The notes under the pieces: generated by a model | Told to the model about the DNA's origin: nothing | Database searches by the model: none | The model's input: the letters and a program-made list of their open reading frames with translations, nothing else | IMG/VR virus record: IMGVR_UViG_2563366883_000005 | Coordinates: 1 to 17,580 of that record | Length of the DNA: 17,580 nt | From: a virus | Lineage: Duplodnaviria > Heunggongvirae > Uroviricota > Caudoviricetes | Reading direction: 5' to 3' (one strand) | Made by a program: the position numbers and the translations under genes | Part shown: piece after piece, positions 6,532-6,641 of the stretch | Layout of the letters: each line of letters begins with the position of its first letter | How positions within the stretch are numbered: the stretch's first letter is position 1

Positions 6532-6641
6532 TTCTTTCCCAATTGCTACACCGTGATAACTAAATACTACACCGTGCTTATTTAAAGTCAAAGTTTTTTT
6601 GCCTACACTGTGTAGCAATGCTACAGCGTGCAGGAGGAAAA
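6532..6641. promoter_or_regulatory. Divergent promoter/operator region between arc-ant and mnt
   Basis: Minus-strand sigma70-like promoter TTGACT (plus 6586..6591), 16 bp, TAGTAT (plus 6564..6569) facing arc. Four copies of CTACA(C/G)(C/T)GTG at 6546-6555, 6567-6576, 6603-6612 and 6621-6630. The third lies in a near-palindrome CTACAC-T-GTGTAG, and the second overlaps the -10. Confidence 0.5.

Follow-up and report, generated by a model that had tools for sequence, protein, structure and literature searches.

A 13-bp inverted repeat, present four times between arc- and mnt-like genes, as the probable operator of an immI-type switch in an Escherichia coli prophage

The repeats, the module and its promoters

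The divergent mnt and arc-ant units of this phage share one 110-bp control region (6532-6641) in which a short motif is repeated four times, and the question raised by this locus is which proteins read the repeats and what their binding would do. The sequence analysed, referred to below as the window, is the whole 17,580-bp stretch of DNA. An earlier note on it had listed four copies of CTACA(C/G)(C/T)GTG, starting at 6546, 6567, 6603 and 6621, and all of them proved to be exact matches on the + strand. Exact matches to CTACASYGTG number four in the window, all within the 110-bp arc/mnt intergenic region, against an expectation of 0.08, and this count was reached by none of 200 dinucleotide-preserving shuffles of the window. 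A repeat finder recovered the same motif family, with start-to-start spacings of 21, 36 and 18 bp, and detected no second repeated or palindromic element in the intergenic region. The earlier note had also raised the objection that the motif might be equally common genome-wide. This objection fails, since the 50 kb of Escherichia phage PhiR12_1, whose module is 100% identical to that of the window, hold the same four exact copies only, and one-mismatch copies outside the region are at chance level there (10 found, 7.8 expected). In the literature searched we found no paper on PhiR12 phages and none containing the 13-mer described next.

As read from the sequence, the repeat unit is a 13-bp inverted repeat, CTACAC-N-GTGTAG, of which the 10-mer is the left part only. 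Copy 3 (6603..6615, centre 6609; CTACAC-T-GTGTAG) is a perfect 13-bp palindrome, CTACACTGTGTAG, which had been overlooked. The 13-bp near-palindrome previously noticed upstream of the mnt SD is indeed present: copy 4 (6621..6633, centre 6627; CTACAG-C-GTGCAG) lies in CTACAGCGTGCAG, with 10/12 palindromic positions, directly 5' of the mnt SD (GGAGG), and is the weakest and least conserved of the four sites. Sites 1 (6546..6558, centre 6552; CTACAC-C-GTGATA) and 2 (6567..6579, centre 6573; CTACAC-C-GTGCTT) have a complete left arm and only the inner GTG of the right arm. Among relatives any of C, G, T and A is found as the seventh base of the motif, with the arms retained, so that the '(C/T)' of the first description corresponds to the unconstrained centre of an inverted repeat; at site 1 this base switches between C and G from lineage to lineage. 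The only other near-site in PhiR12_1 (L006, 8109-8121; ATACACAGTGCAG) has two mismatches to the palindrome and falls in an intergenic gap of the early-left operon, where it is compatible with chance (0.87 expected per 50 kb) and could be a remote target.

By its gene content the locus is a complete P22-type immI module, with ant, sar RNA, arc-like and mnt-like genes. The Arc-like RHH repressor (6391..6531, minus strand; 46 aa, MKVRDIAPLGIRIP...) matches Pfam Arc PF03869 (E=5e-13) and NCBIfam YlcI_YnfO_N, and is 57% identical to the N-domain of the Mnt-like RHH repressor (6642..6890, + strand; 82 aa, MKGARDISPLGIRIP...), itself a match to Pfam Arc PF03869 (E=6e-8), whose ATG at 6642 was absent from the earlier note. 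Residues 4-76 of the latter align with P22 Mnt (1mnt residues 1-69, E=1.6e-5), including the C-terminal region of tetramerisation, the function cited for the C-domain of Mnt in PMC3325190. The regulated cargo of the module would be the antirepressor Ant (5414..6328, minus strand), which has Bro-N and P22_AR_C domains (Pfam E=2.5e-20 and 2.2e-25) and is annotated as an antirepressor in PhiR12_1. A homologue of the sar antisense RNA (6330..6396, + strand; Rfam RF00262, 69.4 bits against a gathering score of 43) spans the ant ribosome-binding site and lies opposite the ant start. The terminator scan placed its terminator hairpin, of 14 pairs, at 6361-6392, and a candidate Psar (6294-6322; GTGAAA-17-TATACT with an upstream TG) is placed so as probably to start it. 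Over 41 nt the sar stretch is 97.6% identical to P22, and the neighbouring genes are not; the sar-region stretch carries the annotation of a mosaic 'boundary sequence' in phage CUS-3.

Downstream of mnt, and coupled to it translationally by a TAATG overlap, lies a ClpP-like ORF of 178 aa (6890..7426, + strand; Pfam CLP_protease, E=1.6e-11), which would probably be co-expressed with mnt from Pmnt and hence in the prophage. All its NCBIfam matches are far below the cut-offs, those for ClpP and for head proteases included, and it is distinct from the phage's own head protease. A ClpP-like gene is also found 3' of a class B mnt (see below) in phages phiv205-1 and EC.P3.

The arc-ant promoter that had been proposed on the minus strand was confirmed by a consensus scan as a predicted sigma-70 promoter at 6591-6564, here called Pant, with -35 TTGACT (6591-6586), a 16-bp spacer and -10 TAGTAT (6569-6564), and it would drive arc-like and ant. 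One repeat overlaps its -10, as was also stated before: copy 2 covers 3 bp of the -10 plus 7 bp of the spacer. Site 1 sits just past the expected Pant start (about +1 to +12), and sites 3 and 4 lie upstream of the -35, on the mnt side, with site 3 centred at about -52. The mnt promoter is probably TTTAAA-17 bp-TACACT (6581..6609, + strand), which was read from the sequence below the scan threshold, has 8/12 consensus positions and a weak -35, and would have its -10 within site 3. The hexamer TACAYT at +18..+23 from the Pant -35 is kept in the relatives that we group with the window as class A and also in class B modules with quite different operators, which argues that it is a promoter element. 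A fully overlapping Pmnt of the P22 style, with its -10 over the Pant -35, was rejected because it lacked acceptable hexamers on reading the sequence. Just upstream of the Pant -35 there is a conserved T7 run (6592-6600; an A-tract on the Pant strand) that resembles an UP element, and site 3 adjoins it, so that, speculatively, a repressor at site 3 might also hinder Pant activation.

Conservation of the sites and co-variation with the recognition strands

Class A comprises seven lineages, collected by protein-guided and pattern-guided searches and aligned by anchoring positions on the Pant -35 hexamer: E. coli (the window and other copies), an L015-type variant of 91-93%, L020, Tatumella terrea (L086), L105, Edwardsiella phage Edno5 and an Arsenophonus apicola plasmid. 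The Pant -35 is identical or TTGACA in all seven, and (C/T)TACA(C/T)-N-GTG sites stand at -13 and +23 from it in every one, corresponding to the centres of sites 2 and 3 (the Edno5 and Arsenophonus sequences were also read directly). The sequence of site 3 is unchanged in five lineages and keeps 10/12 positions in the other two. Site 1 is centred at -34 in 5/7, and the 21-bp and 36-bp spacings are constant in five. Site 4 varies both in sequence and in its distance from site 3 (16-18 bp), and is missing in L105.

In L020 and L086 the 70-bp operator core that runs from site 1 to site 3 shows 90-91% identity, compared with 62-74% for arc/mnt DNA, and in L105 it is 83% identical versus 53-61% for the flanking genes. 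Non-coding DNA that is better conserved than the genes on either side of it, and that drifts only at its palindrome centres, bears the mark of sites bound by protein. The arc-operator-mnt cassette travels as one block; what differs around it is the ant allele (27-99% identity), the ClpP-like gene and the genomic context.

Class A is present in 19 of 5,426 complete E. coli genomes and also in Tatumella, Edwardsiella and Arsenophonus elements. A collection scan for TACACNGTG-N12-TACACNGTG returned 51 loci, 14 of them next to RHH genes, of which one was new (L105); the remaining 37 have no adjoining RHH gene and are compatible with chance. A homologue search with the 45-aa N-domain matched a single truncated protein. 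Two copies deserve mention for their state or their surroundings. That in L014 (IMGVR_UViG_2675903606_000016, 1380-1509) seems to be decaying: its Arc-like protein has His in place of the ribbon Arg (GIHIP), site 2 has become CTATACCGTG and the Pant -35 is mutated (GTCGAA). The class A arc/mnt pair of the Arsenophonus apicola plasmid paApi_AU2 (L142, 1148-1659) sits in a different tail operon, that of this phage-like plasmid, where it is flanked by the genes for the tail assembly chaperones and by the tape-measure gene, and the PLSDB gene table, which is incomplete, lists no downstream ant for it.

In all seven class A lineages both RHH proteins carry the strand [RK]-[DENS]-I-x-P-x-G-[IV]-R. 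Alignment with 1mnt and with AmrZ gives Pro, Gly and Arg as the base-facing ribbon positions in both repressors, and an Arg of the N-terminal arm is also common to both. Such identity of strands is confined to class A among the classes compared, since in classes B, C and D the Arc and Mnt strands differ. Because 11-13 of the 19-21 residues shared by the two paralogues are encoded by different codons in every lineage, the identity is maintained by selection and does not stem from recent gene conversion. The N-arms differ by one residue (MKVRD versus MKGARD), a difference by which the two proteins might still tell sites apart.

Relatives of the immI type with other beta-strands have other palindromes at the O_mnt position. 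With the Mnt-type strand HFNFR, P22 has AGGTCCAC-C-GTGGACCT; the Kapi1 type, with QINIR, has GGTATAAC-C-GTTATACC; L057, with QFKLR, has GAACCAC-G-GTGGTTC; and class B, with PTTVR, has TTTGATATCAAA-type sites. A Paracoccus relative has three copies of GTCAC-C-GTGAC. That the palindromes differ with the beta-strand class indicates that the motif tracks the proteins. Reportedly, as Knight and Sauer described in 1989, the operator specificity of the P22 repressors depends on N-terminal residues, and from their work of 1989 and 1992 Mnt is said to contact DNA through Arg2/His6/Asn8/Arg10 and to change specificity in a His6-to-Pro mutant; these points serve as leads only. A CAC-N-GTG centre recurs in several classes alongside the invariant Arg, which fits AmrZ, where the equivalent Arg22 bonds guanine. 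With Pro and Gly occupying two of the three base-facing positions, the ribbon has few side chains with which to read bases specifically, and recognition of the outer CTA/TAG is unaccounted for. As for the rest of the protein, the C-terminal tail of the Mnt-like proteins (window 6800-6887; also L021, L045, L057 and L059) is nearly identical (...EADKFKEALLETLKTMYGKD(E)K) in at least five specificity classes, and the N-terminal DNA-binding domains of the same proteins differ, which points to a recombination junction inside mnt, between reading head and oligomerisation tail.

A shared-operator reading and its alternatives

We consider it likely, from these comparisons, that the four repeats are the operators of an immI-type switch (the 'ant moron' of P22), in which CTACAC-N-GTGTAG would be read by the beta-ribbon of Arc/Mnt-family RHH proteins, both repressors most likely acting at the same four sites, with sites 1-2 on Pant and sites 3-4 on the probable Pmnt. 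The two proteins present the same DNA-facing residues (the arm Arg and Pro, Gly, Arg), and sharing of the four sites is for this reason the simplest and most likely reading. The earlier note had assigned the repeats to the flanking RHH repressors and suggested for these a specificity unlike that of P22, and the fixed positions, the conservation of the core and the co-varying palindromes bear this out; what has to be revised is that the two repressors seem to have one shared specificity and that the unit is of 13 bp instead of a 10-mer.

If both proteins do bind there, sites 1 and 2 would cover the Pant start region and the spacer with the -10, so that their occupancy would block arc-ant transcription. 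The Mnt-like tetramer, made from the prophage, would occupy these two sites and hold Pant off in the lysogen, and the Arc-like protein, whose synthesis from Pant follows infection or derepression, would exert negative feedback at the same sites. Sites 3 and 4, which cover the probable Pmnt -10 and the leader, could serve autoregulation of mnt (and of the ClpP-like gene with it) and shut-off by the Arc-like protein. The two repressors would then differ only in oligomeric state, the Mnt-like protein keeping the tetramerisation tail, and in time of synthesis.

Regarding the geometry, one dimer could bind each 13-bp site, its Arg reading the G's of CAC-N-GTG. We favour this arrangement because symmetry and conservation end at +/-6, no outer guanine is conserved and Arg is the only base-reading side chain; two dimers per site, the geometry of P22, are disfavoured by the same analysis, albeit possible. 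The 21 bp between sites 1 and 2 amount to two helical turns and would suit bridging by a tetramer. The complete scheme, in which an Arc-like dimer and a Mnt-like tetramer use the same four 13-bp palindromes through a nearly side-chain-free Pro/Gly/Arg ribbon, with one dimer per CAC-N-GTG core and the tetramer bridging sites two turns apart, is offered tentatively and is, in all its parts at once, rather doubtful; its one-dimer-per-core and bridging geometry, like its logic, is absent from the solved Arc or Mnt complexes. Mixed Arc-like/Mnt-like dimers are another possibility, suggested by strands that change together (in L105, L to T and I to V in the Arc-like and the Mnt-like protein alike).

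The chief rival still standing is that the sites serve one of the two proteins only, for example the Mnt-like tetramer, while the Arc-like protein reads another element. Such a division would follow P22, whose intergenic region holds two distinct operators, and would suit the one-residue difference in length between the N-terminal arms, as well as the class B, C and D modules with their different strands in Arc and Mnt. However, besides holding no second repeat or palindrome, the 110-bp region contains no O_arc-like sequence that a second repressor could read, and the set of Pro/Gly/Arg and arm Arg is identical in both class A proteins of all seven lineages, under selection. Four sites, moreover, exceed the need of one repressor on the P22 pattern. 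On this evidence we regard exclusive use by one protein as unlikely, though it deserves to be kept in mind ahead of the other alternatives.

A much less probable explanation is that the repeats are remnants of past evolution that now do little, deriving for example from a tandem duplication or from a mosaic 'boundary sequence'. A 21-nt direct repeat of 76% identity (6541-6561 and 6562-6582) does span sites 1 and 2, which were probably generated by a 21-bp tandem duplication; AGTCAAA..TTTTTTTGC.TACACT is common to class B modules with other operators; and the L014 copy, as described above, looks decayed. But positions and arms are kept where the genes are only 53-74% identical and the centre base drifts, the motif does not recur elsewhere in the phage, and its placement on promoter elements mirrors that of the P22 operators. 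The conservation of sites 1 and 2 argues that they are now functional, whatever their origin by duplication.

Least probable of all is that the repeats act at the RNA level, through a hairpin of sites 3-4 sequestering the mnt SD, or bind LexA or the phage CI, for although region 6594-6642 (sites 3-4 and the mnt leader) has a possible fold of -18.4 kcal/mol in which the SD is paired, and LexA-controlled antirepressors are known in Gifsy-type prophages, the fold is not significant (z-score -1.86; 11/200 shuffles fold as stably), its pairing partners (T-run/A-run, site 4) are not conserved in L086 or L105, it requires a transcription start upstream of the probable -10, no LexA box CTGT-N8-ACAG occurs in 6532-6641 even allowing one mismatch, and the motif is inherited with arc and mnt and not with a given immC or host background.

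Relation to known systems

The reading of the repeats as operators shared by both repressors has its closest point of reference in P22 immI, where Mnt is the repressor of arc and ant, Arc represses mnt while also moderating ant, and the sar RNA base-pairs with the ant mRNA (PMC11016777). Gene order and orientation are the same here, the two regulators are likewise Arc/Mnt-family RHH proteins, the Mnt-like protein can be aligned with 1mnt over its full length, C-terminal tail included, Ant has the same Bro-N and P22_AR_C domains, and the sar RNA and its terminator are nearly identical. In the same orientation, the O_mnt of P22 (AGGTCCACCGTGGACCT) lies just past the Pant start and O_arc in the spacer, and these are the places held here by sites 1 and 2, respectively. 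The central CAC-C-GTG of site 1 (CACCGTG) is identical to the centre of P22 O_mnt.

The control region itself departs from P22 in several respects. It contains one operator type four times, in 110 bp, whereas P22 has one 17-bp O_mnt and one 21-bp O_arc in 90 bp. Symmetry extends over 13 bp instead of the 17 bp of O_mnt, with CTA in place of GGT as outer bases, and the ribbons carry Pro/Gly/Arg in both repressors, compared with His6/Asn8/Arg10 in P22 Mnt and Gln9/Asn11/Arg13 in P22 Arc. The best alignments of P22 O_mnt fall in register on sites 1-3 with 8/17 mismatches, equalled by 319/500 shuffles, and the best match of O_arc has 10/21 mismatches, equalled by 421/500. The view that the motifs are unlike the P22 Arc and Mnt operators stands insofar as O_arc has no counterpart and the 9/17 matches to O_mnt are no better than those of shuffles, and is to be qualified in that the central CAC-N-GTG and the register are common with O_mnt. 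Among the candidates considered, literal copies of O_mnt and O_arc were ruled out by these shuffle-level matches, the perfect 17-bp O_mnt palindrome was rejected since symmetry reaches +/-6 only, and a pair of different operators such as O_mnt and O_arc, one per repressor, was not found, the intergenic region holding a single repeat family.

Edwardsiella phage Edno5 carries an immI-like region of the same specificity class, in which both RHH proteins have RDIAP-x-GIR and TTACAY-N-GTG sites lie at -13 and +23. The paper on this phage (PMC6372524) annotates the genes as Mnt-like, Arc-like and Ant-like only, its authors state that the region is untested, and no operators are described in it. For the contacts, a structural parallel is offered by the AmrZ-amrZ1 complex (PDB 3QOQ; PMC3325190), in which guanine is contacted by the conserved Arg22 through bidentate bonds, and the N-terminal arm becomes ordered when on DNA. 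K18/V20/R22 of AmrZ align with Pro9/Gly11/Arg13 here, in the same strand register; there, however, Lys and Val give further base contacts to GGC half-sites, whereas here Arg is alone in having a side chain for contacts. That a 13-bp site might take one dimer has its precedent in RelB-relO (PMC2812701), where the RHH dimer recognises two hexads forming a 12-bp palindrome and neighbouring dimers lie on one helix face, although that is a toxin-antitoxin system with abutting sites, no spacing between them and RelE as co-repressor.

The kind of system is thus well known, and its mosaic spread has been described as the 'ant moron' of P22-like phages, an independently expressed late-operon insert, itself mosaic, that carries ant with variable mnt/arc combinations under high genetic flux (Villafane et al. 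2008, PMC2629481). Here too the same cassette is joined to divergent ant alleles. That paper concerns podoviral late operons, and the operator specificities of the variants were not analysed there. What is new here is the specificity class, the single operator type used four times, the identical Pro/Gly/Arg heads of both repressors and the location in a siphoviral tail operon.

Arc and Mnt are textbook models of duplicated beta-sheet repressors that diverged in DNA specificity. Class A would be a case of one specificity in both paralogues, with Pro and Gly replacing two of the three base-reading residues and one operator multiplied four-fold. If binding is confirmed, it would provide a natural test case for minimal RHH recognition, by Arg, N-arm and DNA shape, and a test of how a difference in oligomeric state, and in nothing else, can keep 'maintenance' and 'feedback' repression apart. 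All this leaves the general view of phage antirepressor control as it is; class A defines a rare immI immunity type and shows the ant moron entering siphoviral tail operons.

The module of P22, a podovirus, lies between genes 16 and 9, and that of the window is inserted between the tail genes L and K of a lambda-type siphovirus. On the other side of L the window has an OmpC/NmpC-type porin gene (8378-9541, minus strand; Porin_1, E=1.8e-139), located between the tail genes M and L. In PhiR12_1 these two genes are adjacent, which makes the porin gene a second moron in the tail operon of this prophage.
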